This document shows, piece by piece, positions 383 to 38,081 of a stretch of 64,000 nucleotides of DNA (position 1 is its first letter; every line of letters starts with the position of its first letter). The position numbers were made by a program, and so were the translations under genes. This stretch comes from Bispira polyomma (taxonomy: Eukaryota): NCBI GenBank assembly GCA_965649765.1, contig OZ287756.1:57350001-57414000 (forward strand), read 5' to 3'. The notes under the pieces are model-generated. The model was given only the letters and a program-made list of their open reading frames with translations, was not told the DNA's origin and did no database searches.

Positions 383-1479
383 CAGCTTACACCTCTCTTG
401 GTCACATTCAGTTCCTAAAATTTCACAATTTAATATACTACTTTATCCGCCTCTGGAATGTACTGAATATGTAAATAAGTGAATTACTGTACCACCCCAT
501 GTTCTATTTCAATCATCCACGAACACTTATAGTAATAACATTTATATTCTTTGGTACCATTTTTTAAAACTTTAAATTACCGATTTTTCATCTACCTGTG
601 TGGTTTTGGAGTGCAGAAAAAACATTGTACTGCTTTCCTTTACCAACTGCCTACACAGTCATTGAAAGCAATGTTAAAATAAAATGAATATAAAAGTTGC
701 AACCCCTTATGTTTGAAGTCTTTCTCCCCAACATACCCACTGATCTATGCTGCCACACTGTTAGCTGAAGCAACTTGTGCTGTAACAACAAGTGGATCCA
801 TTTTAAACATGACACCTATACCTTGTTGGTTATCAACTTCCTTGTAACCAAAGCAATGCACAGAAGTAAATCAAGCATATTAAGGAATGGGACCTGTTTG
901 GAGAAATGGGTCAGTATGAACACAGACCATATTATTATATGTTGTGACATATACCTGGGTTCTATGTAACTTTCTATATATGTGATATTCTAATCCTAAA
1001 GCGTGTGTTATATCAACAGCAAGATTGACATATCACTGATATTGTCATTAAACTTACATGAATAAGCTAAAAATCATTCAACTTTGTTGCCTATATGGAC
1101 AAAGGTAAGTGTGTATTTTAGCGCTTACCATGTGAGTTAATGAATTTTTAGGCTTCACCTCAAAACCGACTTGGAAACGAATGTTATATGTATAGAATAT
1201 TGTTGTTCTTGTTCCTGTAACAGCCTCAATTCACCTGATGAAATCAATTCATGGACATTTTTGCACTTTATTAAACCATTCTTTCGTACCTTATAATGAT
1301 TGTTTATTTTATGATCATAATGTCTTATCAAATATTCTAAAATAGTAGGCTTTGCAACGCCCATAAGCATGTCTTTTGCGCATTGCATAGTAGGTTGTTT
1401 ACACGGTTTCATCAATATCCCTTGACACTATTCCGTATTTCAATCAATAAATTAAGCTTTCTCACAATGTTTTCATGAA

Positions 1480-1860
1480 AGAGTGATAATAGTCCAAGAA
1501 ATACCATATTAACCTATATGTCAGTCTTATGCAGGACGCAATAGAGTTAGGGGTAGACACAGCTAAAAGGGACACAGCTTCAGGAAGCAGAAAAAGGTCA
1601 CATTACATGGCAAAATATTGATCTCATAGAGAAAATTAGGGCTAGAAACACCCAATGAGTGAGTCACCCTTCTTCTGAGTATAAATATAACCAGGGTGGT
1701 GTTACTTAGTCCAAAGTATGTACCTTGTTCAATAAGGACAGTTGTCACCTTGAAAAAGATCACATAACACGTGGTATCAAATATGAGCACTATTGCAGTT
1801 ATTGTTTTAAGGGTCGCAAGCATGACCACCTTATGTCAAAATGTGTTCGGCAAAAAATAT
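1480..1860 (+). pseudogene. gag: E2 gag remnant (C-terminal half with zinc knuckle)
   Basis: Frameshifted pieces NTILTY..LMQDAIELG..AK, QEAEKGHITWQNIDLIEKIRAR and CTLFNKDSCH..H..HYCSYC..H..C align with the E1/E3 Gag (LMEDA.DF.W..AK, EEGKVTW..LDRIRRA, C..F..G.C..H..H.C..C). Confidence 0.75.
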
Positions 1861-3835
1861 GGTAACAGGGAACAACGTGTTTAACAGAAAATTAAATAAG
1901 CCACAAAATGTTGACCACAGTTTTTTTACTCAAAGACTGTCTAGACAGTGGCTCGGGTGGTGGAAAAATTGACAAAAAGCAGATTTACAAACATGTAGCA
2001 AGGGTTATAACAAGAAGTTAATTACCATGACCAATAGTGTTGAAGTTAAAGGTTATGTAACTCTACGTTAGGAATAATAACGTACTTGTCTAAGTAAGCA
2101 GTACTAAATTAAATCCTATGGTAAATAGCTTTGTTTATACGGGTAAACGCTTCCCTGTCAATTTTAAAGAAAATGTTTTTGTATAATCAGATATAAGCAT
2201 AGGCGATGTAGCCTTTGTTAATTTACAGTTGAATCATAAATGTCAACATTCTATTGTTAATAGTAATGCACCCGAAATAGACACTGTAGCTACTAGCACA
2301 GTTAACATAAATATTATATATAATATAGGCAGTGTCGAGTTTAAAACCAAATCAAATGGTAATGACGGCATATTGTCTTGTATAAATAATATAGTCTTGA
2401 ATCCAAATGCTAAAACTTTTGAGTGCTTAAATACACATGGTTTACCCATGTTGGCTGCTGCACCTATTGGCAATACTAGTATAAATGATGTATTACAAAA
2501 CACGTGCTACATTAGCATAAATGGTTTTGCAAATAGTATTGAAACACACGATGGATGTTTTTCTAGTATAAATGAGGCATGCTCACAGACTAATATAATC
2601 TGTCATGTTTTTAATGTTATGAAAGTTAGTCCTTTGGGGAAAGTTCCTTTAATGGAAGTGACAATACTAACATGTATAATAAGAACTCGTATTATCCTGA
2701 AAAGACAAATGGCACTGATTATTACAATGAGCTAATTAACAGTTTCAGTAATGAAAACACACTAATGTTATAGCTGGGCTGGGTGTTAAGGTCATGTAGG
2801 CGAGTACAAAAGTGGTTGCTTTATTCATCACTGGAACCACCTTCAGGCGTGACTCTTATACTGGAAATGAAAACTGGAAATATAGTAATAGGAACTTGTA
2901 TGGTCAATTGAGCAATGATTGCTGAGAAATACAAGAATGGAAAAACTATGTCCCCTTGTATGAATGTGGGTATGAGGACATAGACAGTTACGTTGGTTTG
3001 GGCTATAACGGATCTAGTCATAACGACCTAGTACAGCCCTCTACCCTTCACAACTTCACAAGTGAGGTCAGTAATTATGTCAATTTTAGTAAAGTCTTCT
3101 TTTAGTAGTAACGTAAGTCATAATAGTTCAAACCAGTGTGCGAAATTTCCGGTGGCCCGTGGCCACTACTTTATGGGAAGAGCCACTTCCTTTCAAATTC
3201 CGGTGGCCCATTGGCCACCTTATTTCCGGGGCTTCGATTATTTTTTAACTACGCACGCCAACAGTATAATTTGAGTACCAGACTGTTTCATTTTTATTCG
3301 GAAAGCATGCCCAGACGAATTTTTACCATAAAACTTTTTCATTTTATTGAATAGGAAGGATATGGATGAGAACTCCTCATATTGTTAAATTTAAATATTT
3401 TATACATTTGTAGTAGTTTTGTATGTGATCTTTATATTTTCTAATTAAAAGCGAATTTTACACATATTTTACTAATTTCATCTATTATCGCCCAGTGCTC
3501 TCGCTGCTAACTGGCTAGCCTCGTCTTTGCTAGTGCTGTAATTTTCAAATTTTAAACCCATCTTGTGGCCCTTTCTTTGGGGTTAAAGCACCTAGCTTGC
3601 TTTTATTTTAAATTTCGAATTCAGTGCAAATTCAGTGTTTCACAGTTATCTCGAGCCCTCTGGCCTCTCATTCGAAATTAATTTATATAATTAAAACTAT
3701 TTTCGGCCCATCTTCTGGCCCTCAATTGGGGTTAAATGACTAGGCTTGCTCAATTAATAAATTTCAAATTCAGTGTTTCACAGTCAACTCGACCCCACTT
3801 GTCGAGGGACTGATAAATTTTTAGCCATTTTCTTC

Positions 3836-4390
3836 CAGTGCCCTACCCAAGTAAACTTGTATATGTGATGTAACACAGGAAAATAACAAGAAAGGTAGGT
3901 TTTGGGGATATTAGCTTTAATTTTACTATGTTATCACTAATAATTATTTACATACTGTGTAGTAAGGGGCCACCTTAGCCCCAAGAGTTTAGGAGAAGTT
4001 AAGAGTTTAAGGTGACCTTAGCCTGAGGACAACAGGCCAAAGTGACCAAAGGGATTTTTAAAATTTAAGGGGGGGGGCCCTAGCTTGAAAGTTAGGGCTC
4101 CCTAAGATTGAGTTTAAGGTTAAGGGTAGCCCCAACTTGGAAGTCAGGGTTACCAAAGATTGAAATTTTTAAGGTTGAATTTAGGGGTACCCTAACTTGA
4201 AGTTAGGGTACCCTTAGAATGAGTTTAAATTTAAGAAAAATGGTAACCTTAGATTTTATTTGAGGTTGCCAAAAGAGATTTAGTAAAGATGTAAAAGGAT
4301 TAAATTAGTATAAGGTAAGGTGGCCCCAAAATATTTATATTTAAGCATTATTATATTTTATTTGTATATAATGTATGTAAATAAAGCCCC
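3836..4390 (-). repeat. E1 split direct repeat B2
   Basis: Near-identical to 5487-6043 (a few substitutions/indels). Confidence 0.95.
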
Positions 4391-5291
4391 CAAAAAGGGT
4401 AAAATCGAAGTTAAAAACCATGGTACTAGCTAATAGACTAAAAACTGTGCTGCTCACTAATAAAGTCCATGAGAGTAGCAAAAACTCACTAGACCTTAAA
4501 CCCCTAGCATATACAATTACCATGGCTTACAGAGAACATGCATACAGACATGAGCAAAATATAAATCGAGTAGCTGTTGTCTTCCAGGAGGGCAGTGCTT
4601 GCTTGTATAGAGTTCATTCCTGACTGAGCCACAAGAGATCCATGAATCCCGTATGCCTGAAACTACATGCTTACAGTTCAACATGTGATCACAAAGCTAC
4701 CAAATGCACTTGCACACAACATGATGTGCAATGCATTGTAACGTTATACTAGCAACCACACCAGGTTGCGAAATACAAACATTTTACAAATCCAGTCCTC
4801 GTAACGAGGAACAACATTACTAGTTATACTTTACATGCTATTATAACAACAAAAAAGGATGCCACTTCACATACTGTATACGTATAAATCATGCTGCCTG
4901 ACGCAGGATATTTGACAACATTATCAATTTGATATACAACAAAGGGAACACCCTGAAGACAATAAAGTAACGTACAATTGATAACAACAAAAGGAGACGC
5001 AACCTCAGCAGCAAGCAGCTACCTACAAGAAAGTGTTGGCCCCTAAGGGCCCTGGTGTTACCCAGAAAATATGGGAGATAAGTCACCTGAGGCCCCAGAA
5101 GGCCCCCAAGGGCGAGGAACTGTGAAGGCCAGCAGTAATGCATAACTCGTGGGCCCACAGCCCCGAGCCCCCACCCCCCTGCGCCAAGGTGTAAAGTGAG
5201 ACTTCAGGAACCCCAGGGACTGCATGCAGCACTCCAGGGACGGACGCATAGCTGAAAACTACCGAGGAAGTAGAAGGGGCAAGTGGGTGGG

Positions 5292-5486
5292 TAATGTAAA
5301 ATATTAAAGATGGCGTTGTTGCCTACATGACTTCACAAGTATAAGTGAGGATTCTAGCTAAAAAGCGGGAAACAGAGGTTAATTAGTACACAAATCGCCA
5401 ATTAGGAGAGGGTTTAAAGGGCATGAACCCAAGGAGGAAAATACTGGTAGCACTGAACTTGCTATCCCCTACGGTGCTACCCCGCA
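5292..5486 (-). repeat. E1 split direct repeat A2
   Basis: 195 bp, appears identical to 10829-11023; directly abuts B1. Confidence 0.95.
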
Positions 5487-6043
5487 CAGTGCCCTACCCA
5501 AGTAAGCTTGTATATGTGATGTAACACAGGAAAATAACAAGAAAGGTAGGTTTTGGGGATATTAGCTTTAAAATTTTACTATGTTATCACTAATAATTAT
5601 TTACATACTGTGTAGTAAGGGGCCACCTTAGCCCCAAGAGTTTAGGAGAAGTTAAGAGTTTAAGGTGACCTCAGCCTGAGGACAACAGGCCAAAGTGACC
5701 AAAGGGATTTTTAAAATTTAAGGGGGGGGGCCCTAGCTTGAAAGTTAGGGCTCCCTAAGATTGAGTTTAAGGTTAAGGGTAGCCCCAACTTGGAAGTCAG
5801 GGTTACCAAAGATTGAAATTTTTAAGGTTGAATTTAGGGGTACCCTAACTTGAAGTTAGGGTACCCTTAGAATGAGTTTAAATTTAAGAAAAATGGTAAC
5901 CTTAGATTTTATTTGAGGTTGCCAAAAGAGATTTAGTAAAGATGTAAAAGGATTAAATTAGTATAAGGTAAGGTGGCCCCAAAATATTTATATTTAAGCA
6001 TTATTATATTTTATTTGTATATAATGTATGTAAATAAAGCCCC
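5487..6043 (-). repeat. E1 split direct repeat B1
   Basis: Copy of 3836-4390; begins a few bases after the YR stop. Confidence 0.95.
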
Positions 6044-6052
6044 AAAGCCCAA

Positions 6053-7099
6053 CTAGGAAGTAGTAGAAGGGGCAAGGAGGGCCTTGAAGGTGAGGGCGAC
6101 TTGGTCAGATGCATTGTGATCCTGTACAATATATTTCCACACACAATCAGACGTCCAAGTGCCATGGCTCTGGATATCTTGAATTGGGACATTATTGTTG
6201 AAGGCCCAGGTGGCACCTGAACGCCTGAAGGTGTGGAAAGAAATGTTTGATTGCTGGAGGCCAAGACGCCTCAAAATTTGGGTGAGATTTTGCCTAGCTT
6301 GGGTGTCAATCATTGGAGACCATTTATGGTGTTTTTTAAACTGAAAGAGAGGAGAATTTTTGTGTCCAGGAGTAATAGCCAGCAAGGCCCTTGTGGCAGC
6401 CACCGGACAGAGACTAGAGCCACTTAGGCTCGGTATTTTAATAACTTTTGCTACATTCTTTGACTGCATTGTTTTAGACCACTTTATTATGAGGTGGAGG
6501 CCAGGGGAGGCAAAAAGTACGTCCCCCCGGGCCAATAGGACAAGTGGAGAGAATTGAGAGACAGCATGTGGAAGTAAGTTAGATATTCTAAGAAAAGAAA
6601 AGAAGGCAATGAGGTACAGAGCCTTGAAGATCTGCCCCATGTACATGCTGTCACAGATTTGAGTAATTTGGAGCAAGAGGGGAATGTCAATAATAGCGTT
6701 AATTTTAGCCCTGAAGGGGCTATTGAGTGTAAGAGCTTTTTGGTAATACTTAATTCTAGGATCTGCAAATGCAGAGACGTCAAGGCCATAGAGGGCCAAT
6801 TTAGCTTTAACTGCCAAAAGGTAGTTTGCAATGGAGGGGGAAGAGACCTGATTAACCACTAATACTTCTAAGAAAGCCAATATAATAAGGGAGGAGATAT
6901 TTTGAGGCCTGACCTGAGCAAAACTACAATAGGCCAAGAATATCCTAAACATATTTGTATAGGCCCTTTCAGTGGCTGGTCTAAAGGCCTGATGGGCTCT
7001 GTATGAGGCTTGTGTAGCAATCTTTCTTAGCTTGGAAGGTACATCTGCAATTAGATAGACCAATCTATTTCTAACATTGTGTCTTTTACTTTTACCCAT
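6053..7099 (-). CDS. E1 tyrosine recombinase (probable exon start 7044, spliced to gag)
   Basis: Catalytic motifs LRISNL (R), WSKT (K), HTFRR (HxxR), HGTW and terminal Y (WKYI) are all present. Confidence 0.93.
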   Translation of the reverse strand: MGKSKRHNVRNRLVYLIADVPSKLRKIATQASYRAHQAFRPATERAYTNMFRIFLAYCSFAQVRPQNISSLIILAFLEVLVVNQVSSPSIANYLLAVKAKLALYGLDVSAFADPRIKYYQKALTLNSPFRAKINAIIDIPLLLQITQICDSMYMGQIFKALYLIAFFSFLRISNLLPHAVSQFSPLVLLARGDVLFASPGLHLIIKWSKTMQSKNVAKVIKIPSLSGSSLCPVAATRALLAITPGHKNSPLFQFKKHHKWSPMIDTQARQNLTQILRRLGLQQSNISFHTFRRSGATWAFNNNVPIQDIQSHGTWTSDCVWKYIVQDHNASDQVALTFKALLAPSTTS

Positions 7100-9501
7100 T
7101 TGGGATTCGGTACCAGTTGTAGTAACTTGTCCTTATTACTGGCCGTGATCTGCCATCTGGAGAGGAGATCAGCCACTGTATTAAGTCTACCTAAAATGTG
7201 AATGGTTTTAAGGCTGATGTCATGGGAGGCTACGGCCATGAAGATGTTTCTGGCAATAGCTGCCAAAGTGAGGTCTTTAGTTTTGCCTGAATTTAGGATA
7301 GTGACCACGGCAGCATTGTCGCATTGCAATATTAGCCTCTTACCTGCCCAGGCTGACTTCCATAGCCTAATGGCAACTAGGATGTTTAACATTTCCAAAT
7401 GAACTATCATGAAATCTAGGTAGCCTAGAGGAATTTGGAATTGGTATACTTCATCATTACAACGGCCTCCCAACCCTTGGAGGCACGCATCCAACTGAAT
7501 ACAATCGGTAGTGGGTTTGTGTTCAAAGAAGGCTTTTCCATTAAATGTTGGTAAAAATTTTTTAAACCAATTTACATCCTGATGAAACTCAGGTGTGAGT
7601 TTTACTTTTTGATCCGAGCCTACAGATCTTAGGACGTCAAGCATTCGGTTTAAGAAAGCACGTGAAACTCGAACACATTTGGATACATATAACAATTTAC
7701 CTAGCAGTGACTGCAACTCCCTCTTACTGCAGCAGTTTCTTAATTGCCAGTCTTGCACAAGTGTGTTTATTTCTAGTAGCTTTTCATCTGGCAATGAGAT
7801 TGTCAAGTCATTTGTGTTAACTAAGACCCCCAGACACGTTACTGACGTGCTGGGGTGAACAAGTTTCTTGTGACTAATCGCAAAGCCTAGTTCCTGGAGT
7901 AAGTTTAGCAATATATCAAATGAACGTTTACTTTCTATGACGTCACCATAGCCGATTACGTCGTCGATATAATTGGTGACGTCATGTCCGTGACGTTTCA
8001 TGATGTACCTGACGGCGTCACTTAATCGCTGAAAAATTGCGCTCCCGTGCCGAAAACCAAATGGGAGGCAAGAGTCGACATAGTATTTGTCTAATTTCAA
8101 GCCTAGTAGATTGTAATCGGCTGGATCCATTTTCACGTGACGAAATGCCCGACTTACGTCAATTTTATATAGGAGCGTTCCACGTCCCATGCGACAGACT
8201 TTGTTTGTAATTGTGTCAATTGTGGGAAGGGTTAATGCAAACGCAGTACCGAGATACTTATCCTTGACTACAGCCGAGTTCACAGAGTTGCCATGAGGAA
8301 AGCTTAAATCTATGATAACGCGCCTGTGTGCGGCACCTGGTTTTTCCCTAGTCATAAAGGGAGAAATATGGAGGTTTTTTATGGGGGCCTTATGGAAAGG
8401 GCCCAACATGGCACCTAACTCAGTCTCTTCTTTTAAATACGCATGCACATCATCTGGAAATTGTGTTGCAGATGAATGATTCTGTTCTGTATGAGATAAC
8501 TTGCTGTCGGGATTAAAATCGAGGGGAAACCCATATCTTATCAAAAAAGGGAGTTGTTTATCCCAGTAGTCAGTCAAGTACTTTTCCCATACATCTGGGT
8601 TCAACTCAGATTTCAATTGAACTTGTGCCCCCATATAATTTGGGTAGTTGTCCTTCTTAATGTGAGTGTGTAATTCTAACAGAGACTTATCCGACTTTAC
8701 TCGTTTATCCGTTTGGGGAACTCGGAGGTCATTTAGCGGAATAAACCCATACTTATCTGTAGTTTGAGTATCCCATTGCTGGAACTGAGGCTGGTTGGAA
8801 GCCTGTTTTATAAGTTCCCTGTTTTTCGATTTAGTTTGTAGCTCTAGGTCATATTTGTCTGATTTGATTCCCCCAGTAGCTCGAGAGAGTATTTTAAAAC
8901 CTTGACCCTGGTTACAAGTATCTGGTAAATGTGTGACAGAGTTGTCACTAATGTGCATATAATGGTCATTGTCACTCAACGGGGAAAACCTATTGTGAGT
9001 GGAAACGGGCCATTTGCCCTGCATGTCTAATTTTGTGATTTCCAGCTTTTGGCCAAATTGATCACCTTTTGTTGGAGGGAGTTTACCCATTTTTGACATT
9101 ACATTATGCCTCTGTACACTTGTGAAAGGAGAAGCATCTTTTGTGAAAGTTTTAACACTCACTCTGTGGCCCCGTTCATGCTTTGTGGACCCCTCTGAAA
9201 TTTGGTTGTTATTTAAACATGGTGAATATTTAACGTGGTGACTTTGCCACCTCTGAGTCACATTGGCACTTTGTACAGAAAACTTTATGGCAGCAGACCT
9301 GGAGGGAGCCTTTCTTTTAACCACATCAGCATAAGATCTATTTACAAATTTGGCCCAATCTGCCCTCCAATGTGTACTGGCAGTATTACATTTAAGACTA
9401 TTATACACGGTTCTAGTAGGACAACCTTTAGAAATATTTACAACTTTTTGTGCAAGTTTTTTCTTGACCACCTCTTGTGTGGAGGAAACATGGGGTGGCA
9501 C
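7051..9501 (-). CDS. pol: E1 Pol: reverse transcriptase and RNase H
   Basis: RT motifs KIDVSRAFRH, LPFG, YIDD, CLG; RNase H motifs DACLQG, HLEMLN, CDN, ADLLSR. Lies in the -1 frame relative to gag. Confidence 0.95.
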   Translation of the reverse strand: MPPHVSSTQEVVKKKLAQKVVNISKGCPTRTVYNSLKCNTASTHWRADWAKFVNRSYADVVKRKAPSRSAAIKFSVQSANVTQRWQSHHVKYSPCLNNNQISEGSTKHERGHRVSVKTFTKDASPFTSVQRHNVMSKMGKLPPTKGDQFGQKLEITKLDMQGKWPVSTHNRFSPLSDNDHYMHISDNSVTHLPDTCNQGQGFKILSRATGGIKSDKYDLELQTKSKNRELIKQASNQPQFQQWDTQTTDKYGFIPLNDLRVPQTDKRVKSDKSLLELHTHIKKDNYPNYMGAQVQLKSELNPDVWEKYLTDYWDKQLPFLIRYGFPLDFNPDSKLSHTEQNHSSATQFPDDVHAYLKEETELGAMLGPFHKAPIKNLHISPFMTREKPGAAHRRVIIDLSFPHGNSVNSAVVKDKYLGTAFALTLPTIDTITNKVCRMGRGTLLYKIDVSRAFRHVKMDPADYNLLGLKLDKYYVDSCLPFGFRHGSAIFQRLSDAVRYIMKRHGHDVTNYIDDVIGYGDVIESKRSFDILLNLLQELGFAISHKKLVHPSTSVTCLGVLVNTNDLTISLPDEKLLEINTLVQDWQLRNCCSKRELQSLLGKLLYVSKCVRVSRAFLNRMLDVLRSVGSDQKVKLTPEFHQDVNWFKKFLPTFNGKAFFEHKPTTDCIQLDACLQGLGGRCNDEVYQFQIPLGYLDFMIVHLEMLNILVAIRLWKSAWAGKRLILQCDNAAVVTILNSGKTKDLTLAAIARNIFMAVASHDISLKTIHILGRLNTVADLLSRWQITASNKDKLLQLVPNPKWVKVKDTMLEIDWSI

Positions 9502-9531
9502 TGCATCACTGCAGTGCCTTACTCGTTTTTT
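9497..9531 (-). promoter_or_regulatory. -1 ribosomal frameshift signal, E1 gag/pol
   Basis: A_AAA_AAC in the gag frame (9531-9525), 6-nt spacer, then hairpin GGCACTGCA-GTGA-TGCAGTGCC. The -1 frame runs directly into pol. Confidence 0.8.
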
Positions 9532-10493
9532 AACGGATATTTTTTACAGTCTTTTGCAGGGTGGGGGTAAGACCTCCCATTTTGAAAGCATTGGTTACAC
9601 ACATGACTATATGACACACCTTTGAATTTGTGATCCCCTTTTTGGGGGCAAGTACCCCTCTGGAAGTACCTACATGGGATGGACTTCTCATGACTTTTCC
9701 TGGTGTTGGTTTGATAATTACTACTTGCAGTCTGGCTGACAACCCTTTGGGCATGAGCCCGTCTAATCCTGTCCAACTTGTGGGCATCTCCCCAGGTTAC
9801 CTTACCCTCTTCCATTTTACAGAGTACAACGGCATGGCTAGCCTTAGCCGAAGTCCAGGAAAAGTCATGAGCGTCCTCCATGAGGTCAGTGAGATAGTCC
9901 AACATTTGGTTTTTAACGTCTAAATTACTTTCATCTCTAGCTATGCTGGCAAAACCAGAGACCCACTGGGCCATTGACAACGCGTCATACGTAACTCGTG
10001 TTTTGTTTTGTCCCCCTAGTATAACGTTCTGAGGCCAAGCCACCTTATTCTTCACCCACAGAGTGTCGGGACCCCCTCTTTGAGATTTTGACGTACCTGA
10101 CTCGTTAATGGCCACCAATTCCTTAAGACGTGAATCCACTGCAGTCTGTAAGGAGTCGGATGTACGTAGTGTGTGTAGCGTCGGAACCAGTAGCTCAGAA
10201 GTGGTTTGGTCCGCCTGTCTAGGTTGGGCTGCACTCCCCGGGCTCGACGCCGTCAAAGCCTGGGCTCCATGTGAACTGCGATAAACTTGCTGCTCAACTT
10301 GGGTCATACGCCCACTTAATGCTTTGAGTTCAGTCAAAATTTGTAAATTAACGTCGGCAGCAGTTACACCATCGCCAGTCACAGAGTTCTGCTGGGAGGT
10401 TCCCACACCGATATGCATTTTACAGTTTTCATCAACGGGCTTAACATGACTAGTTTCACACTTGTGACAGTAATATTGTTTCCTTGGGGCCAT
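9519..10493 (-). CDS. gag: E1 Gag-like protein
   Basis: N-terminal CxxC..H..C, coiled coils and C-terminal Cys/His zinc knuckle; homologous to ORF1 of E3 and E4. Confidence 0.9.
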   Translation of the reverse strand: MAPRKQYYCHKCETSHVKPVDENCKMHIGVGTSQQNSVTGDGVTAADVNLQILTELKALSGRMTQVEQQVYRSSHGAQALTASSPGSAAQPRQADQTTSELLVPTLHTLRTSDSLQTAVDSRLKELVAINESGTSKSQRGGPDTLWVKNKVAWPQNVILGGQNKTRVTYDALSMAQWVSGFASIARDESNLDVKNQMLDYLTDLMEDAHDFSWTSAKASHAVVLCKMEEGKVTWGDAHKLDRIRRAHAQRVVSQTASSNYQTNTRKSHEKSIPCRYFQRGTCPQKGDHKFKGVSYSHVCNQCFQNGRSYPHPAKDCKKYPLKNE

Positions 10494-10828
10494 AGCCTCT
10501 GAATAATATAAGAACTCGTGGCTTTGATACCTGCAACTATACTAAAGGAACTGTAACGCGATAATCTGAATTGAATTATGTAATCAGGCAAATAGCCGTG
10601 AATTGGATGCAATATAATTGATTTGACCACGTTCCTTTACCACCGCTCAAACGAGCATATAATCGCAGGACTCAAAGTAGAGTAAAACACAGGAATCCAG
10701 CACAAGCACTGCAGATCAGGTCCTCCTTAGTGTGTAGCAGCACTTAGTGAATCATTTGTTGCATTTCTTGTTTCCATCACACAGATAATAAAATCAGTGA
10801 AGTAAAAATAAAACACATAAAAGTAAAA

Positions 10829-11023
10829 TAATGTAAAATATTAAAGATGGCGTTGTTGCCTACATGACTTCACAAGTATAAGTGAGGATTCTAGCTAAAA
10901 AGCGGGAAACAGAGGTTAATTAGTACACAAATCGCCAATTAGGAGAGGGTTTAAAGGGCATGAACCCAAGGAGGAAAATACTGGTAGCACTGAACTTGCT
11001 ATCCCCTACGGTGCTACCCCGCA
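10829..11023 (-). repeat. E1 split direct repeat A1 (5' end)
   Basis: Matches 5292-5486. Confidence 0.95.
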
Positions 11024-11209
11024 AAATTACACAATATATATTTTATAATACATTAAAAATTTGGTTCTAAGTCGTATTCTGAAAAAAAAAATTATAGCTT
11101 AATCTTTCATTACAAAGTATTGGGCCACCTGATTCTAATCCGGGCAACCAAACTATAAAATCTGGTGGCCACCACACTTTCTCCGCAAAGTTTACACACT
11201 GATTCAAAC

Positions 11210-13570
11210 ACAGATGGTGAATATACACAACACCATGCCATGAATCTGACACATGATTTACAGCAAATGACTTCTATAGATGGAAGTAAGAACTTCCCTA
11301 ATGTATACAATGTAATATACGACCATTTTGTATCAGTATTTTGTAATGATATTTTAATAAATGATAAATACCATAAACAAGGTACCTTAAAGTAAATGTA
11401 ATGTCAATTCCAATGATTATCCACTGTACAATACATTTACATGTGCTGCTTACTATAAAATGGGTCAATCAATGATCCATTTCCATGCTAGTTATAGTAT
11501 AGAAGATAGTATTGCATTTTTTATGGGGACAAGTCATATTTACACCAAACAGCGGATTGGAAATGTGTTCCTTATATGGTTACAGACATTGAAACCACAG
11601 TGTACAAAAAGACATAGGGATATAGGACAGGGAATGTCCGGTCAATAACTATACTGACACTCCTACCCATAACAGGCCTATAGCAGTATCAGGAGTAGAA
11701 AAAAAAAGAGTATACATAAATGGGAACGAGTCACATTTACACAAAAATGCTGAGCATGTCCCTTATAAGGTAAAATACATTGAAAGATCATGTGAACAGA
11801 GAGTCAAAAGCACACATGATACAGAATGTCAGGTCAATAACTATACTGACAGTTGTAGTATACTGACAGCAACAAGTATACAGTAGTAGAGTTGATAATA
11901 ATTCCTTCAATAACAGGAATAATAAGGGTTGTTTAGTTAGACAGGGTTATAACTCTACCACCATTAATAAACCTGATAATGAGGTGGAAGCACGTGATTT
12001 TGGATTTATGCCACATGGGCCTTCTCCACTGGTAATTCCTTTGGGCTTTAATACTATTGCCTTTACACCTAATGTGACATGGTTTATAAAAATTCATAAT
12101 ATAGTTAAATCACAGCATTGTGCTAATTATAAAGGGGCACGGTTTACAGTTTTCTCAGGCTTAAATATCCCCTTTTGGAGATCCAAGATTAAAAGGTTAT
12201 ACTTTAGAAATATCAGGCGAATATGTACAGTTTGGATTTCCACTTAATGTGGACTATAGCATTTAATTATAATACAACAATTGTAAATCACAAATCAGCA
12301 TTATGTGCACCTGTAGGCGTGGATGAGTATTTCAAAACGGAAGTTGGCCATAGAGCAATGATTGGCCCAATTTTTGAAAATCCATTTTCGGAAATGCAGT
12401 TTTCGCTATAAATGGCTCGACCTAAACCAGATGGAGGTACTCGTGTTATAGTATATACGTCCTGGTCACCAGGCCAAGGTGTTAACAGCTGTGTTTCAGC
12501 TAATATATATGATGACATGCCTTTTACGTTGAAATATCCCAACATAGATCAGGTAATGTAAAAAATCAATTTGTTTGGTCATTCAACCAAACTATATAAA
12601 ATAGATTTACAAGGCGCATTCGTAACTTAAGGATAGATCTTTTTGATTACCCTGTTTTAGTACTTAAATGGAAAGATAATACATATGTAGATGTTGCATG
12701 ATCACGGAATTTGGGTAATGAATTATTTAGATGATTATATTGGAGCTAGCCCTCCTCACTTAGGTGAAAGTCATTTCACTTCCCTTAAAACCCTTCTTGA
12801 TAATTTGGGTCTCCCCGTCAATATGAAGAAATTAGTACATTAACTATACCTCTTAGTAAGATAATGGAAGTTAAAAAATTATGTACTAAGTGCTACTAGA
12901 AACCAGTTGCAAATGTTAACAGGCAAGTTATTATCCATACACAGGTGTTTAACCTCCCCGTGTATTTATAAATTGAGTTTTACAGGTACTCAGATCTGCC
13001 CCAACTAGAGTCAGTATAGTTCTCCCTGATTATTTCTATAAAGATATAGCCTGGTTCAACCAGTTTGTGGAGGTGTTTAATGGAGTCGTTGCAGTACAAG
13101 AAGATACTAAGGCTAAATATACAGTATATGTTGATGCCTCATTAGAAAAAGTCGGGGGTTTTCATAATAACTTGGTTTATTTTACAGATATTCCAATATA
13201 TGTAAAATATTGTAGATGAATTGTTCATTTGGAAGCTGCTAACATTTTGATTGCTCTGAAAATATGGTGTAAAACTGCAGAAATGCAAAAGTAGATATTT
13301 AGTGTGATAATCTGGCCGTGGTCTACGTATTTTCTTCTGGAAAATTAAAAGACCCTTGGCTCATGGCTTGCCTACGCTCTGTGCACTACCTGGCTGCCTA
13401 TAACATAGAAATATGTGCTAAACATAGACCAGGAGTAGAAAATAGATATGCAGACATACTGTCGCGATGGCATGCATATCAAGATTGTAACACAACAGAG
13501 GTTAAGTTATTCAAAACATGTAAGTGGGAGATAGTAAATGGATAAATGTTAATACCCAATTTTCATATCT
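11210..13570 (+). pseudogene. pol: E2 pol (RT/RNase H) pseudogene
   Basis: Fragments ANYKGAR..SGLNI..W, NHKSA, AMIGP, YLDDYIG, VDASL, HLEAANILIALK, CDN and ADILSRW, broken by many stops and frameshifts. Confidence 0.85.
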
Positions 13571-13682
13571 AGAAACCCTGTTATTATATAATATGTTACC
13601 ACCTCCTCTGCCCATCCCCTAAAGTGGGGTGGGACTGTCTATAAAGAGACATATACTGCCAAGATTGTGCCATGTATTTCAG

Positions 13683-14635
13683 GAACATCTATGGCGGCCA
13701 TCTTGGACAGAATTGCTTTACAGCGCATCCCCTTTGGCATGAGACCTCATTCAACCAAGGCTTATGACGCAACGTTTCGACTATTCCTGGCGTTCGTGGT
13801 ATACATGAAGTTTGCTGTACCTCACAACTTAAGGACCATCACCTGTTATGTGGAGTATCTTATACAGATTAGATTGAGGGCTGCCTCAGTAAACAATCAA
13901 ATTTCAACGTTGTCTCACTATTTTGGGTTGTATGAATGGCCTAAGTATGGCCTGTATTGCATGAAATTACAGATGCTAATTAAATCCATCAAAATCAATG
14001 CCCCTTTAAAACAAAAAATTAAAGGTGTTTTGATTATTACGTTGTTGAAAAAATTGATAATAACTACTACTAAGACTTTTCTAAATCATGAAAATTTATA
14101 CAGCTCTGTTCTTGAGTGCTTTCTTCGGGTTTTTCGATTGGCATCATTACTTTCAAATGCCGTAAAAGAGTAAAAACACAGGCTGACTTAGTGCTGGGGC
14201 CCCCAGGACCCCATGTAGTAATTACCTGCGCAAAAAATATGCAGAGTTCAGGACAATTTTATGTAGTGTAGTTACCTATTCTATCTTACAAAGACATTTG
14301 TCCCATCAAAGCATTGAAAACTTTATTGCAAAAGATGCCAAGTAACAGTGAATCGCCTCTCTTTCTGATTAAAACTAAAAGTGGAAATGTTCCTCGTACT
14401 GCTTTCAAGACTAGATCATTTCTAAAACTTGCTATTATAAAAATTGGCTTATAGCCAATAAGCTATGACTTTTATACTTGCAGTAGAAGCGGGGCTTCAC
14501 TGGCATTTGATCAAAATGAAGATTTACAAAATATAAGGACTCATGGAAACTGGAAAAGTGAGGCGATCTGGACATATTTGAAAGTCCACCCCTGAAGCAT
14601 AGTTCCTAAAACATTCCAAAAACTTTTACTATATA
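13683..14635 (+). pseudogene. E2 tyrosine recombinase pseudogene
   Basis: MRPHSTKAYDATFRLFLAF, FRLASLL, CPIKAL, RSGASLAF and HGNWKSEAIWTYL, with frameshifts and stops. Confidence 0.85.
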
Positions 14636-26245: not shown

Positions 26246-28429
26246 ACACAGGCACAATGTCTATTCTATATTTTATAGCTACAGTTGTACATGAGAAATT
26301 ATACATATGGTCAAACATGTCAAGCTCTAACTTTCTTGTAATCAATTGTAATCAGCTGCAAACGAGTTTCAACTGGCTTCAATTGATAGCAAGAGTACAA
26401 CATTCGAAAGGTCACATTAAACATCATTTAAATATGCAAATTTATAATAATAGAAGCTAATATTTCTGTCATGTCATTTATTAATCTAATAGATATGTAA
26501 ATATGTAGCAAAAAATCAGTTGTATATTAAGCAATACACTGTTCTTTGTATATTAATTTTTATAAATTTTCAATCTCTCATAAGCCATACTTGGCATGCT
26601 GTGTAACAGGTTAAAGTATGATAAAAAGTCTATCCATCTATCTATCACTGGGCTAAAATAAGTCTACAGCAAATAAAATCTTAACAGAGCGGTTAAACAT
26701 ATGGATGCCTTTATTGGCAATACCGGTTATTCAGATGAATAAATTATTATAATATTGTATATTTTATTGATTGCGTGTAATAGAATAATAGTACATCCAA
26801 CATATTAAATAGCTTCATAGAGTTAAGGCATGACAGGGTGAAAATGAATTCCCAATACAGTGCACATGATGCTAACAGTGCCCTAGTGTGGTGAGATTGA
26901 ACATGTGGAAGTACGACAGAATATGATATAAAGTTTGGAGGTTTTTCTGTACAAGTTAGTTTATCTATACCCAGAGTTACAGTGTGTAAAACAATAGATA
27001 TAAATAAAATCCTATAGGAGCTCACATACATATAATAATAATAGTTTATTTTCATACTAATAGTACATAAAAAAGATATAGATACAGATGAATAGAACAA
27101 ACATATAAACATAATTACATATCATTACAAATAAAGATAAATGAAAAAAAAATTTACACTATTTTATTATAACTTTCATCAATTAGTACACAAGAAATTT
27201 ATAATTTCAATAATTTTTTCCTTGCTAAAAGCCTTTTTACTTGCATATTTTGGTTTTCTGATGATATCAAACCTCACACCATCTTCAGCTTCACAATTTG
27301 ATAATACAAGGCATATCACAAGGTCTGACATCATATTTGAATATCCATGAAATCATAAAATGGTCAAAAACCAACCAAAACAGATTTAAGGGGCTATGAA
27401 CTTTACAGCATAAATGCGCTGCCGAGATATTATGCTGCATTTATTCGATTTTATTTTAGCCTATATATACTCACTTTACCTGCCTTATAACTATAGTTTA
27501 CTCGCAGTTTTAACCATTTTAGATGTAGAAACAATTTAAAACTTCAATATTGTATTGTGACGTCACATAATTTTAAATCTATAGTGAAACGTCATATTTG
27601 TAAACAATTCTCGCAGAGACATTTCTATCGTGATATAATATAAGTATTGATCCAGCATATATGAAGGTATTATATACACTACACAACTTTAAAATATGTG
27701 TATACTATTTTGAATGAATTACATTTTTAAATAGGTTTTCTTATTTTATATGAAAGAAGAATTGAAAATACTCTTTCTTTCAGGATATGGTAACTTATAT
27801 AGTTTTCTAAAAGAGACCCGGTTTTTGTATTTTATTTGAAAAAATATATTATTTAAAATAAAGCTGAAGATTTCCTTTCTCTAGTGATTTACAATACCAC
27901 AGTATTAATTCCTTCTTGTGTGTGAATTGTGTAACGTTTGTGAACCATGTTCTTACAAATGTTAACCATCTTTTTTTTCAAATTTATACACACTGCCATA
28001 TGTATTATATGTCCTAAAATATATATTAAAGTGAGTCATAAAATCTATAAATTAGCATATAATTAAAATAGTTTTTTTTTGTATTATTTCTACTGACAAA
28101 AATGGAAATATGTTATCTATAAATCGAGTTTAAGGCACAAAAATAAAAGTTGTGCAGTTTGTGAAAGGCTCCAACTGATGAAACGTGGGAATTGGCGATT
28201 AGTTTATGTGTTTACGTTTTGTAAGCGAACGCCCTCAGCGTTCGTGGCCTCAGTTCTGGGGTACCAGCCTGTTCTACTATTATGGGATGGTGTACGACTA
28301 TATAAGGCTCTCCTTTTTCAAATTCTCCCGCCTTTATCGTTTCGTCAGCAGAGCAACAACTAGTTTAAAATTTGTTTGGGTGACATTTTGTTTATGGTGT
28401 TTACGGTTTTATAATTTACAATATCTTAG

Positions 28430-29518
28430 TTGAAACACCATCTAGTCATGCCTGTCTTTGATTGTACTCAATGCTTAACCAAACATGAGCGTCCTGTCGG
28501 GCGAAATTGCGTTACTGCAAAAATTGTTGACTCTGTCTCTGGGGAGGAGATCGATGCTGCCTCAGACACTGAACCCGCAAACGGTGAGTCCGGCGATGCA
28601 GTTACCAATGCTATACTACTTCAACTGCACTCGATGAACGAATTAATGGTGAAAATGGACCAGCGGGTTCAGAGGAATGAGGCAGCATTGGCGACGAACC
28701 TTACCAGTAGTCAGGCAAGTCATCAGGTCCCCGTTCAGGCAAGTAGTAGTTTGATTAGTTCTAGTGTTGTCAGGCCTGCTAGTTGCTCTGCTGACGTAGG
28801 TAAGAGCCCATCTATCGCTACGTCCGACAGTATAATTCCTGGCATAGATTTTTTAAACCAGAATGCCCTAATACAGCTCCAAGTGGAGCAGAGATTGAAA
28901 GATCTCAAAACGTTGAATGAGACCACCTCGCAAGGTAAAATGAAGTCCCAGCGTAGTGGGGCGAATGAGGTATTGGTAAAGAAGGTCACCGCCTGGCCTC
29001 AAAATTATGTGCTGACGGGTAGTTCTAAGTCTCGGCCTAGCTACGATGAGTTAACCGTGTTGCAATGGGTGTGTGGTTTCGCTCGGATCGCCCAAGAGGA
29101 GAAGTCGATCGAAGTGAAGAATGCCATGCTGGATTACATGGGGGGTCTTATGGAGGATGCCCAGGATTTTTCTTGGGAGTCAGCTAAGGCCTGCCATGCA
29201 GTCGTATTGACAAGTATGGAGATGGATAAGTTAGGTTGGCTAGAGGTAGATAAGATGGATCGAATCCGAAGAGCCCATGCTCAGCGCCATGTGTCGAACA
29301 GTAGAAATTCCTCTGGGGCGAATGGACGGCTAGGTAACTCTAGTAGCAGTAAATCTGGCAGTCGTAAAGGTGCAATGTTTTGTCGCTTTTATCAGGAAGG
29401 AAATTGTAGATTTCCCAGCTCTCACAATACTGGAGGTCAGTTATATAAACATCATTGTGAGACATGTGAGGGTAGCCACAAGACTAGTGAATGTCATAAG
29501 AAAGGGGCAAAAAACTAA
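28430..29518 (+). CDS. gag: E3 Gag-like protein (ATG probably at 28448)
   Basis: CTQC..H..C N-terminus, WPQN, LMEDAQDFSWESAK and C-terminal zinc knuckle; homologous to E1 Gag. Confidence 0.9.
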   Translation: MKHHLVMPVFDCTQCLTKHERPVGRNCVTAKIVDSVSGEEIDAASDTEPANGESGDAVTNAILLQLHSMNELMVKMDQRVQRNEAALATNLTSSQASHQVPVQASSSLISSSVVRPASCSADVGKSPSIATSDSIIPGIDFLNQNALIQLQVEQRLKDLKTLNETTSQGKMKSQRSGANEVLVKKVTAWPQNYVLTGSSKSRPSYDELTVLQWVCGFARIAQEEKSIEVKNAMLDYMGGLMEDAQDFSWESAKACHAVVLTSMEMDKLGWLEVDKMDRIRRAHAQRHVSNSRNSSGANGRLGNSSSSKSGSRKGAMFCRFYQEGNCRFPSSHNTGGQLYKHHCETCEGSHKTSECHKKGAKN

Positions 29519-29543
29519 GGGGCCACTGCGTTGATGCAGTGGC
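29509..29543 (+). promoter_or_regulatory. -1 ribosomal frameshift signal, E3 gag/pol
   Basis: A_AAA_AAC, 6-nt spacer, hairpin GCCACTGCG-TTGA-TGCAGTGGC; the -1 frame continues into pol. Confidence 0.8.
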
Positions 29544-31938
29544 TAAAAGGGGTGAGCAAAAAAGTAGGTTTGTCTATAATACTAAATTTAAGGATGTACA
29601 GTTATTTGAGAGGTCTGTGTGTCAGAAAATGTGTAAATATGTGAAGGGCACCAGACCAGGCCTGAGCTATAGCCAGGCGTTGCAAAAGAATGGCCCAGTT
29701 CAAAAGTATGGGTGTGTAAATAGAAGTGTTAATAATGTACAGGTAAAACAGGCAAGGTTTGACAAGAGTAAGGTGAAGATAGTACATAACAAAAGTGACA
29801 CCTTGGTGAGGCCCCTTGGTACCTCTGTGAGCCAATTGACACCCATTGTGAAGCCTGACACGTGTGCGAAACAAGACAAGGGGATAACAAAGGAGGTCAA
29901 TTGTTCGAGATTGAATGGGGGCGAAGCGAGGCGGGTCAATGGGGGTGTGGCTGTCCTCCCTCTTGCTAACAGGTATACCGCTCTAATGTCGCTGCCGGTC
30001 GATGACAGTGAAAATGTTGACGAGCCCGTTCGATTCCTTTCTGTTACTAGTGACAAGCCCGTTAACCGAGGCAAGGCGAGGAGTAAAACTGCTTCCGAAG
30101 ATAGCCCGGGAAGTTTTGAATGTTCCGATAAATACGCTTGTGCTTTGAAACAGAAAGTAAATAAGAAAGGCATGTTAGCTAAGGCTGCCTCAAATCCTAC
30201 TTACAGAAAATGGCAAGCTCAAAGTCAATATGCATATGGATTCACTCCTCTCTCTGCTCTGGGCTGTGAGATTGCAGATCATGGTGGGGGAGGGCCCGAA
30301 CTTTCCATAGTGGAAATGCATGACTTAATTCGGGCTGATGGGAGACACAATTATGAAGGGTTGCAAATCCCTGTTCCCTCTCAATTAAGACCAGAGAGTT
30401 GGAAAAAATACCTTAAAAATTACTGGGATTGGCAATTGCCTCTCCTCATAAAATATGGATTCCCCCTAGATGTGGATCATTCAGTTAAACTGGAATCCAG
30501 TGAGATTAACCATAAATCGGCTGAGGAATATCCACAGCATGTAGAAGCTTATATGCAAGAAGAATGTGAGTTAGGAGCCATGTTGGGGCCATTTGACAAA
30601 CCTCCCATTCCGGGCTTGCATTGTTCTCCCCTTATGACGAGACACAAACCGAATTCAATTAACCGGAGAGTAATTGTAGACTTAAGTTGGCCTCAAGGGG
30701 GGTCGGTTAATGCGGGGGCATCTCCTTCCTCTTACTTGGGTGTTGAATTTTTGCTGTCTTACCCATCTATTGATAATCTCACTAGTGAGGTGGTAAAATT
30801 GGGTAGAGAATGCGAGATATTCAAGGTCGACATAAGTAGGGCGTTCCGTCACGTACCCATTGACCCTGGCGACGTTGACCTCCTAGGTCTAAAGTGGAAG
30901 TCCTATTATGTGGACAGATCTCTGCCGTTCGGATATCGTAATGGTAGCACGATTTTTCAGAGAATTTCGGATGGCGTGCGTTTCATAATGCACTCTGAAA
31001 ATCATAATGTCCACAACTATATCGACGATTTCTTGGCGATTTCTGTTCCCAGCAAAATTCAAAAAACTTACCTGAGATTGCAAGAACTGCTACAAGAATT
31101 GGGGTTGACAGTAAGTCAGAAAAAATTGGTTCCTCCCAGCACACAGGTTGTCTGCTTGGGCATAGTGGTGGATACCATTCGTGGTACTACTTCCATCCCG
31201 GTTGAGAAATTAAGTGAAATTAAATATAAGTGTCAGGAATGGAAATCCAAAAAATTCTGCACTAAGAGGGAGCTCCAGTCGTTACTTGGCTTGTTATTGT
31301 ATATTTCTAACTGTGTAAAGTATGCTCGTGTCTTTTTGAATAGGATGCTGGAACTGTTAAGAGATAATTACACCAGAAAGTATATTACCATCAACCCTGA
31401 ATTCAGGCGTGACTTAAATTGGTTTACTACTTTTGCAGAACAGTTCAATGGAGTCTCTTTCTTCATGCCTAAGCCCATAACTGGTGAGATTGAATTAGAT
31501 GCCTGCCTTACTGGAATGGGGGGTATTTTTGAGAAACAAGTGTACCAAATTAACATTCCTCCAGAAATGAGTGAGGTCAATATTGCTTCTTTGGAGATGC
31601 TTAACATCCTGGTAGCTTTAAAATTGTGGGTTCATAAATGGAAAGGTCATAGAATATTGGTCAGATGTGATAATCAGGCAGTTGTAAGTGTCTTACAGAC
31701 AGGGCGCACCAGAGATCCGGACTTAGCCACGTATTCTAGGAATATATACATGTTAGCTAGCAAGTTTAATATTGATATTGTTGTCATACATATTTTGGGT
31801 AAAGAAAATAAAATTGCAGATCTGCTGTCAAGATGGACTGAAACTGAAGCCAACCATTTGTTGTTATTTAGGTTAGCTGGGCCTGTCCAGTGGCTGCCTG
31901 CTTGCCACAGTTTATTAAAAGTTAACTCACTTATATAG
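29539..31938 (+). CDS. pol: E3 Pol: reverse transcriptase and RNase H
   Basis: KVDISRAFRH, LPFG, YIDD, DACLTG, LEMLN, CDN, ADLLSR. Confidence 0.95.
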   Translation: MAKRGEQKSRFVYNTKFKDVQLFERSVCQKMCKYVKGTRPGLSYSQALQKNGPVQKYGCVNRSVNNVQVKQARFDKSKVKIVHNKSDTLVRPLGTSVSQLTPIVKPDTCAKQDKGITKEVNCSRLNGGEARRVNGGVAVLPLANRYTALMSLPVDDSENVDEPVRFLSVTSDKPVNRGKARSKTASEDSPGSFECSDKYACALKQKVNKKGMLAKAASNPTYRKWQAQSQYAYGFTPLSALGCEIADHGGGGPELSIVEMHDLIRADGRHNYEGLQIPVPSQLRPESWKKYLKNYWDWQLPLLIKYGFPLDVDHSVKLESSEINHKSAEEYPQHVEAYMQEECELGAMLGPFDKPPIPGLHCSPLMTRHKPNSINRRVIVDLSWPQGGSVNAGASPSSYLGVEFLLSYPSIDNLTSEVVKLGRECEIFKVDISRAFRHVPIDPGDVDLLGLKWKSYYVDRSLPFGYRNGSTIFQRISDGVRFIMHSENHNVHNYIDDFLAISVPSKIQKTYLRLQELLQELGLTVSQKKLVPPSTQVVCLGIVVDTIRGTTSIPVEKLSEIKYKCQEWKSKKFCTKRELQSLLGLLLYISNCVKYARVFLNRMLELLRDNYTRKYITINPEFRRDLNWFTTFAEQFNGVSFFMPKPITGEIELDACLTGMGGIFEKQVYQINIPPEMSEVNIASLEMLNILVALKLWVHKWKGHRILVRCDNQAVVSVLQTGRTRDPDLATYSRNIYMLASKFNIDIVVIHILGKENKIADLLSRWTETEANHLLLFRLAGPVQWLPACHSLLKVNSLI

Positions 31939-31961
31939 CACGTGTTAGTCATGTTTTCCAG

Positions 31962-32947
31962 ATATACAACCTGTGGCCATCTCCTTGATGCAGAAAGCTT
32001 GTGACAGACTTGAACTTGCCTTCACCCCTGCCACTAACAGAGCCTACAACAGAATGTTCAGGCTGTTCTTGGCGTTTGGAGCCTTTATGTCATGGCCTCC
32101 TAAAAAGGTGACTGTGTTATATCTCCTAGCATATTTAGAGTTTTTAACGTTTAATGGTGTGTCGGCGAGTCAAGTTCTTAATCATCTTTCTGCCATTAAG
32201 GCAAAGTGTGTCCTCTTCCATATATCTGTAGACGCTTTTTCTGATAAAAGAATCACCTATTATAATAGAGCTTTGGCAATGCATAGACCATTGCAAGTAA
32301 AACTTAAGTCAATTTTCGACGTCCAGTTGTTGAGGTCTCTTATTATAAAGTGTGACAGCACTTACATGGGTCAAATTTTTAAAGCAGTTTATCTTACCAG
32401 TTTCTTTTCCTTTCTGAGGCTGTCTAACCTCTGTGCTCATTCGGTTGCTGCTTACTCTCCTCTTAAGCAGCTTGCAAGGGCTGATGTCCTTTTCAAGCCA
32501 GGGTATGCTGTCCTCATTGTTAAATGGTCTAAAACCCTTCAGAACAATAATGCCGTTCGTTTGCTTACCATCCCAGCTTTAACCAATTCCATTTTATGTC
32601 CGGTTCAAGCTTTAAAGAACATACTGTCTATTTCTCCCAAAGGGAAAGATTTGCCCTTGTTTCAATTTAAGCAGAATGCCATTTGGACTCCCCTCACTGA
32701 TACTAGGGTTCGCAGGCATCTTAAGAATGTCTTACTAATGCTGGGCCCGCAGTACTCTGGCTTGACCTTTCACGCCTTCAGGCGTTCAGGTGCCACGTTT
32801 GCCTTTAACAATAATGTCACCATTCAGGACATCTAAAGGCAAGGCACCTGGACGTCCGATTGCGTCTGGCGTTACATTTCGGATTCTGCCAATGCTGGTA
32901 CTCAAGTTGCCGATTCCTTCAAAACTATTCTACAGGATACGCACTAA
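31962..32947 (+). pseudogene. E3 tyrosine recombinase with a premature stop
   Basis: LRLSNL, WSKT, HAFRR, then in-frame TAA at 32834-32836 before RQGTWTSDCVWRY. The catalytic Tyr is lost; natural stop at 32947. Confidence 0.9.
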
Positions 32948-32958
32948 AATTTTTGGGT

Positions 32959-33502
32959 TTGGTGGCATGACTGTAACATCTAGTCAGTTTAACATTGCAA
33001 GTAGCATATTAATTACCTGTAAACTAAATGAATTAACTGTGGGCATAAGGTCCCCCTGTATTATTAAAGTACATATTGTACTCATGTAATTAAAGTTGCA
33101 CTTAAACCCTAAGTCAAACTTTAATTTGTTAATCTTCAAAGTCATATTTAAGTTTCAACTTAAATCAAATTTTCTAAATTCAACTTCTTTATTAGTTAGG
33201 GTTACTTAAACTCATTCTGGTTTAACCTAAAGTCCTAAACTCAGTTGAGTTAAGGGGACCTTATGCTCACACAAAGTGTATATCATGTCAAAGAACTGTA
33301 CATAAATATCTTAGTAATAGTAGCTGTAAATATGAAATAAAATATATTTAACCGCAGTATTGTCTTTCTATGACTTCTTCGGTTAATTGAGTTTCCTCAG
33401 GCACTACTATTATGGGATGGTGTACGACTATATAAGGCTCTCCTTTTTTAAATTCTCCCGCCTTTATCGTTTCGTCAGCAGAGCAACAACTAGTTTAAAA
33501 TT
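32959..33502 (+). repeat. E3 B1 and A2 internal repeats
   Basis: B1 matches 34243-34691; A2 matches 28274-28372; they overlap at CTACT (33404-33408). Confidence 0.93.
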
Positions 33503-36048: not shown

Positions 36049-36234
36049 CAGTTTGCCCAAGTAAAGGTAAGTCAAGGTCAGGATATGAAGAGAGGTACTA
36101 TATGTGGTTGGAAGTGATGTAATAGGTTAAATGTTTGAGAGAATTTATTTTCTATACATGTTAGAATCTATTTACAAAATAATAGTGGGTTAAAACCTAC
36201 TTTTAAAAGTTATAAAATAATTTTTAAAATGCCC
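36049..36234 (-). repeat. E4 split direct repeat B2
   Basis: Matches 36899-37084 with a few substitutions. Confidence 0.93.
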
Positions 36235-37084: not shown

Positions 37085-37092
37085 AAGCCAAA

Positions 37093-38069: not shown

Positions 38070-38081
38070 CTGAAATTCAAC

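Follow-up and report, generated by a model that had tools for sequence, protein, structure and literature searches.

A complete Ngaro-type retrotransposon of average age in Bispira polyomma, from a recently active family with predicted frameshift, splice and junction signals

Is a complete tyrosine recombinase (YR) retrotransposon in the genome of Bispira polyomma an active source element or an ordinary member of its family, and how would such an element express its proteins and insert? The DNA analysed (the window) is a stretch of 64,000 nt of contig OZ287756.1 (assembly GCA_965649765.1), and the element runs on its minus strand from position 11023 to 3836, in the order A1-ORF1-RT/RNase H-YR-B1-A2-spacer-B2 (ORF, open reading frame; RT, reverse transcriptase). 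An initial annotation had described it as a fully intact, young and potentially autonomous Ngaro-type element. With a probability of roughly 70%, we read it as a complete copy, average in age and likely weakened in its own recombinase, of a Ngaro-type family that was active recently and that has a probable frameshift, a probable splice, ends probably rebuilt from an internal junction and a predicted insertion from a hairpin. What had been claimed for this copy was overstated; the signals of the family appear well supported by comparison of more than 40 close insertions with some 25 related families.

The layout agrees with the structural definition of Ngaro elements, as far as the available text of PMC4157794, PMC9210276 and PMC3783388 gives it. 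Split direct repeats (A1-B1-A2-B2) are present, RT and RNase H share a single ORF, the recombinase lies downstream of pol on the same strand, and there is neither a DDE integrase nor a target site duplication. Pfam finds no methyltransferase domain, which would be expected of a PAT-like element, and comparison of the element's repeats revealed no inverted terminal repeats with an internal complementary region (ICR) as in DIRS1-like elements. The Ngaro-type identity proposed initially is supported by these structural features, and the element adds one member to an already known kind. All three frames are open and, again in line with the initial annotation, every catalytic position checked is present (nine of nine in RT/RNase H, six of six in the recombinase; kept in 91-100% of 117-120 homologues). 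ORF2 (Pfam RVT_1, E 3e-11) consists of a linker, RT (D462, YIDD 525-528) and RNase H (D685, E717, D742, H782, D792) and stops 38 aa past the last RNase H aspartate, so that no room is left for a methyltransferase domain. ORF3 (Pfam Phage_integrase, E 1.8e-6) carries R182, K220, H300, R303, H323 and Y334 (stop-to-stop numbering); its predicted structure (predicted local distance difference test, pLDDT, 89) is most similar to Tre/Cre (template modelling, TM, score 0.68; IntI, 0.47). ORF1 is putatively Gag-like, as its position and the Cys/His clusters read from the sequence at both ends would fit; it is under purifying selection and contains a coiled coil (residues 45-76) and a helical domain (174-256); it has no Pfam family and no Foldseek match at E <= 0.001 (best Z 5.4; only unnamed Atlas clusters). 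Hundreds of proteins are related to those of the element, with identities of 50-63% for the closest. In the spacer, the longest frame (104 aa) has no Pfam match.

The family is large and was recently active. Searching the same genome gave 11 full-length copies at 95-100% identity and another 10 that extend no further than B1, besides many related families; in the further genome searches the best 40 places were scored each, so that copy counts are lower bounds. At least 44 copies with their cores entered the trees, 24 of them with the internal junction and 20 as short forms (A-ORFs-B) that lack A2-spacer-B2. Among 42 copies (the two most divergent excluded), the ratio of non-synonymous to synonymous changes was 0.94, 1.10 and 0.52 in the three frames for shared changes versus 2.71, 1.84 and 2.52 for singletons (neutral ~2.7; Fisher P 0.002, 0.007 and 8e-7), which argues that all three genes were under selection while the family moved. 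The present copy is not alone in its open frames: all three are full length in five of the 24 junction-bearing copies, and a sixth copy is 3 aa short.

Within this family the present copy is not special; it is complete, average-aged and one of dozens of close copies. The epithet "young" is an overstatement, as three events over 752 bp separate its repeats, which is the median value for 19 full copies (range 0-9), and its end branch (0.53%) ranks 33rd shortest of 44. So is "fully intact", since 18 codons are private to it in comparison with 41 sibling copies, nine of them non-synonymous. All three private codon changes in the recombinase are non-synonymous, and at one of them, residue 106, 97% of 117 homologues agree with the siblings; an autonomous copy with all conserved residues is thus not what is found here. 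Residue 106 lies in the modelled fourth helix of the N-terminal (core-binding) domain, which contacts DNA in Cre, and the copy is likely weakened by this change, as judged from conservation. The search for near-identical copies proposed initially did yield close family members, none of those sampled being nearer than ~1% (L058 and L070, among 43 other copies), so that no recent descendant of this copy is found among the sampled insertions. An exact empty-site joint (3835|11024) was not found among the rows listed for three DNA contig sets (two samples, one study), in which only paralogous empty sites were seen and whose contigs drop rare variants.

The repeats bear directly on how the ends are made. 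A1 and A2 do not differ at any of their 195 bases, B1 and B2 agree at 99.1% (two substitutions and one 2-base indel), and the B1|A2 junction is an exact join of the element's two ends, in line with the first description of identical A repeats, nearly identical B repeats and an intact junction. The ends themselves are exact across copies (TGCGGG at the start, GCACTG at the finish). In the 19 full copies, the two repeats within a copy differ on average by 1.3 (A) and 2.2 (B), versus 9.8 and 13.0 between copies. Variants common to several copies sit in both repeats, and alleles private to this copy at A41, A91 and A151 occur in A1 as well as in A2. The exceptions are one extra B boundary position, which differs between B1 and B2 in 19 of 19 full copies, the last A base in two copies and a C-to-T change at A3 that recurs singly. 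Both copies of each repeat evolve as one, which is the prediction of copying both ends from the internal B1|A2 template; we regard such end repair as probable with good confidence, and the element's ends would then be rebuilt from this junction. In DIRS-1, an internal template mirroring the joined ends is essential according to the available text of PMC7192593. This concordance does not demonstrate a double-stranded circle, which the initial annotation had treated as established; it is a model only, and the same text reports DIRS-1 cDNA as mostly linear and single-stranded, with a failed inverse PCR for the circle. Furthermore, the B2|A1 joint of a circle would be identical in sequence to the genomic B1|A2, which makes the outward PCR proposed initially ambiguous with any primers other than ones placed in the spacer and the leader.

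B contains palindromic units (4182-4216 and 5835-5869), which related families conserve at B 162-222. Over its first 340-370 nt (4912-5279, minus strand) the spacer is G+C-rich and ~80% conserved in three related families, the repeats being conserved at 68-73%; Rfam gave no match, and in a fold of the spacer over four families 3 of 72 pairs changed on both sides, counts that are spoiled by a stray 10-base row.

For expression, the element was compared with 17 representative copies (YR 38-85% identical to this copy; L124 and L126 close kin). An early ATG is missing from ORF2, whose start overlaps ORF1 in the -1 frame; a slippery site followed by a hairpin is present in 13 of the 17, with stem changes on both arms, the exceptions being three broken copies and one from a clade with an in-frame TAG. 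Gag-Pol would thus be made, very probably, by a -1 frameshift. The recombinase, in turn, would reach the particle through splicing. A phase-1 donor (scored with generally known splice-site frequencies) stands at the column of ORF1 codon 133 in 15 of 15 aligned representatives, where GGT is found 15 times; the next best of 41 conserved glycine columns reach 11 and 10. The acceptor YAG is in phase 1 in all 17 representatives and in 19 of 20 further loci; stop codons in the same frame often lie a few codons upstream of it, and conservation of the recombinase begins well before the next methionine. Removal of 10096-7045 leaves an open Gag-YR frame of 462 aa, in which a Cys/His cluster, the coiled coil and helices ending at residue 130 would be joined to the recombinase. 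At more distant loci the donor lies at this column or at most two codons away in 10 of 13 aligned rows (seven rows unaligned); the three loci without it weigh against the reading. A donor-like site in the RNase H region is not conserved, and large deletions in family copies lack GT..AG ends, so that no spliced copy was found in the family. On the strength of these comparisons we hold a spliced Gag-YR fusion to be highly probable, and it would load the recombinase into the particle. Both kinds of signal are present in this copy, as initially stated. In one family (L137, L157; at least nine places with that frame length), RT, RNase H and recombinase form one open frame of 1174 aa, in which the acceptor is kept.

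The junction itself can fold. In 16 aligned junctions the B end pairs with bases 30-33 nt into A, with 89% of cells paired and 17 cells changed on both sides (as high in none of 500 shuffles; slid controls 19-50%), and the element's end lies at the inner edge, or foot, of the stem. Such pairing of inverted arms within one strand, accompanied by compensatory changes, matches an attC-type site; the 16 sequences are related to each other. The insertion sites were compared over 43 5' and 51 3' flanks, two segmental duplicates having been dropped. The initial finding of no target site duplication holds: none is seen at 29 of 43 complete sites, versus 25 expected from shuffled flanks, and where an empty paralogue can be compared the ends are exact, no base having been added or removed at the filled site (L076 at 99.4%; for this copy L093 and L097, among 29 paralogues with a T run of variable length). 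Preferred bases are A at -4 (27 of 43), T at -2 (34 of 43), G at -1 (13 of 43), A/T at +1 (46 of 51) and G at +2 (22 of 51), and the mean match to ACTG|TG is 2.63 of 6 versus 1.50. Targets therefore loosely resemble the junction ACTG|TG and have no strictly shared core. The host repeat interrupted by this copy (3136-3835 and 11024-11200) has very high depth in three DNA runs and contains internal repeats of 138-149 bp.

Several other explanations have to be weighed against this reading of the copy and its family. A fully functional, autonomous source element would have open frames, all catalytic residues and cis signals and identical A repeats, as this copy does, and 1% of homologues do share its residue 106. 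That description is nevertheless unlikely to be correct, given the substitution at a position so strongly conserved, the exclusively non-synonymous private changes in the recombinase, the distance to the nearest of the 43 other copies and the three repeat differences, which would imply some 14 post-insertion changes over 7.2 kb. Of the potential autonomy claimed initially, the cis signals stand and the autonomy itself is doubtful. It is very improbable that the element is a PAT-like one that has lost its methyltransferase domain: although the available text of PMC4157794 describes a PAT-derived lineage without this domain in C. briggsae, and the Ngaro label is given here by structure rather than by a tree of reference elements, Pfam gives no such domain, and gene order and end position are constant in families down to ~40% RT identity, so that any loss would have to be old. 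More evenly placed is the question of insertion. In the classic model, a double-stranded circle recombines with the target via a short core around TG that both have in common, and the inverted repeat would act elsewhere, for instance in the joining of cDNA ends. It has somewhat less than an even chance; it was proposed for DIRS elements (available passages of PMC3266345 and PMC7192593), 5' flanks end in TG at 13 of 43 sites and 3' flanks start with TG at 10 of 51, and the best fold matches of the modelled recombinase are Cre/Tre. However, the 6-bp junction is matched at no more than two positions in 20 of 43 sites, and there is no strict shared core. Duplex core sites of such recombinases have their arms 6-8 bp apart, and arms 30-33 nt apart are too distant for such a site. 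The hairpin would fit an attC-like folded substrate and the single-stranded cDNA of DIRS-1, and the element would then insert from a hairpin-folded B|A junction. That the recombinase acts like the integrases of integrons on attC, binding one folded strand and cutting where the stem begins at its foot, is a tentative reading that falls a little short of even odds. Several points tell against it: the hairpins fold with modest energies (z of the sense strand between +1.0 and -3.0 over 11 junctions, -1.3 in this copy), three of eight pairs never vary, the main two-sided change splits along two clades and may be one event in related sequences, and a second element of the window (E2), excluded from the junction alignment, showed no such stem. 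At L015, moreover, the TG of the filled site is AT in four of five empty paralogues, and the resemblance of targets could partly reflect element bases copied in by repair.

The origin of the short forms is similarly balanced. They are scattered on the tree (13 changes versus 14.8 +/- 1.8, P 0.24), and the idea that they copy themselves found no support, as this clustering is not significant; junction-less insertions are probably dead ends. Their share is flat with end-branch length (6/14, 7/15, 7/14), and a constant share fits better than loss at a constant rate (lnL, log-likelihood, difference 3.6; bootstrap P 0.001), which points to loss at birth or shortly afterwards, the outcome expected of RT template switching, though end branches are a poor clock (Spearman 0.15 with repeat-based age, P 0.55) and the test is therefore weak. 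The length of the direct repeats B1 and B2 (557 bp) would explain why about half of insertions lack A2-spacer-B2; in retroviral RTs, deletion between repeats of this kind runs at 41% to >90% per cycle (available text of PMC3187697). The alternative, that short forms arise after insertion by recombination of B1 with B2, has an even chance. Tandem gains of A-spacer-B are younger than the insertions at three loci (C2, six 1656-bp units identical, older parts of the locus differing by 4 of 1399; C10, B2 identical to B3, B1 differing at five sites; L123, units identical, A1 and A2 differing at three), so that recombination between B repeats also occurs at the DNA level, and unequal crossing over gives a short form as its other product. 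Relics that consist of A-spacer-B alone, with clean ends (L085, L086, L088), also fit this route; all of them belong to older (72-90%) relatives. The C2 locus (G000:C2:3422363-3440649; L052-L054) reads A-ORFs-B, six identical A-spacer-B units, A, and a partial spacer that runs into the ORF2 end, followed by YR and B; a spacer before ORF2 arises only in a circle or a head-to-tail dimer, and the two YR regions differ at 4 of 1399. The chain as a whole, in which animal Ngaro elements would carry a spliced Gag-YR in the particle and integrate single-stranded cDNA via an attC-like hairpin formed only at B|A, cut at the stem foot into ACTG|TG-like targets, with about half of the progeny junction-less at birth, is doubtful.

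Features of the element and its insertion site (positions in the window)
Feature	Position	Strand	Remark
Repeat A1, 195 bp	10829..11023	-	5' end of element, starts TGCGGG; 100% identical to A2
Unique leader	10494..10828	-	
ORF1, putatively Gag-like, 324 aa from ATG	9519..10493	-	
ORF2, 830 aa, RT + RNase H	7051..9543	-	
ORF3/YR open frame, 359 aa	6053..7132	-	
Tyrosine recombinase exon (predicted), 330 aa, Cre-like fold in model	6053..7044	-	
Repeat B1, 557 bp	5487..6043	-	holds all three repeat differences of this copy
Repeat A2, 195 bp	5292..5486	-	
Spacer, non-coding, ~900 bp	4391..5291	-	
Repeat B2, 555 bp	3836..4390	-	3' end of element, finishes GCACTG
Slippery heptamer A_AAA_AAC, ORF1/ORF2 overlap, -1 frame	9525..9531	-	
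9-bp hairpin, 6 nt past slippery site	9497..9518	-	
Predicted phase-1 donor CAG|GTACGT, ORF1 codon 133	10091..10099	-	intron would begin at 10096
Predicted phase-1 acceptor CTAATTGCAG	7045..7054	-	last intron base 7045
B1|A2 junction hairpin, GCACTG (B end) pairing with CAGTGC 31 nt into A	5450..5492	-	
YR codon 106, private substitution	6815..6817	-	fourth helix of N-terminal domain in model
Interrupted high-copy host repeat, left part	3136..3835	.	outer limit unmapped
Interrupted high-copy host repeat, right part	11024..11200	.	29 of 29 paralogues align across site

The window holds further elements of this kind. E2 (28274-34691, plus strand) is a split-repeat YR element whose recombinase is 51% identical to that of the first; its ORF1 and ORF2 are both open, its YR frame ends at 32836, short of the catalytic tyrosine, and donor, acceptor and slippery site are shared with the first element. 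In a third one (36049-42382, minus strand; YR 38%), ORF1 and ORF2 are broken and the YR frame is open. In the clade of this third element, all 16 loci shown have a TAG with a G after it at the end of ORF1; in the third element itself this stop is in frame with ORF2, which suggests that the stop codon is read through and no frameshift is used. Older, broken pieces of related genes (RT, YR and ORF1) lie at 12286-14580 and 1434-1844 (both plus strand), 27234-27368 and 43414-43518.

In its overall plan, the element resembles Ngaro-like elements described from Xenopus (DIRS-53_XT), Cafeteria (Ngaro1-4) and amphioxus, which share A1-ORFs-B1-A2-B2, a gag-like ORF (putative in the present element), RT/RNase H, a downstream recombinase and the absence of a methyltransferase (available passages of PMC9210276, PMC8547959 and PMC2632668). 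In contrast to these, it has no hydrolase ORF of the SGNH type and has a 900-bp spacer between A2 and B2; its frameshift signal, spliced Gag-YR fusion and junction hairpin, all predicted, are absent from the descriptions compared, as far as their available text goes. Solo AB repeats and ORF1-less forms are described for Ngaro-like elements in PMC8547959 (available text). In the literature search, the available texts described no spliced Gag-YR fusion, junction hairpin or Ngaro assay, and expression and integration by a Ngaro recombinase appear there without a published experiment; Goodwin and Poulter 2004 and Poulter and Butler 2015, which may describe some of the signals, lay beyond this search. 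PAT-like elements have split direct repeats as well, but, unlike the present element, carry a methyltransferase domain (PMC4157794, available text). DIRS-1 of Dictyostelium likewise combines RT, YR and an internal sequence mirroring the joined ends, and differs by its inverted repeats with an ICR and its methyltransferase domain; a traceable reporter assay for YR retrotransposition exists for it (PMC7192593, as far as available). The likeness to integrons concerns the substrate: integron attC recombines as a folded bottom strand (PMC8876359, available text). In attC x attI recombination, as would be the case here, folding of a single strand brings two distant inverted arms into the recombinase site. 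The modelled Ngaro recombinase, however, is far closer to Cre/Tre than to IntI, as the TM scores above indicate. Together with its related families, the family gives exact predictions: one splice junction, one frameshift site, one hairpin with a cut point at its foot and one target consensus.

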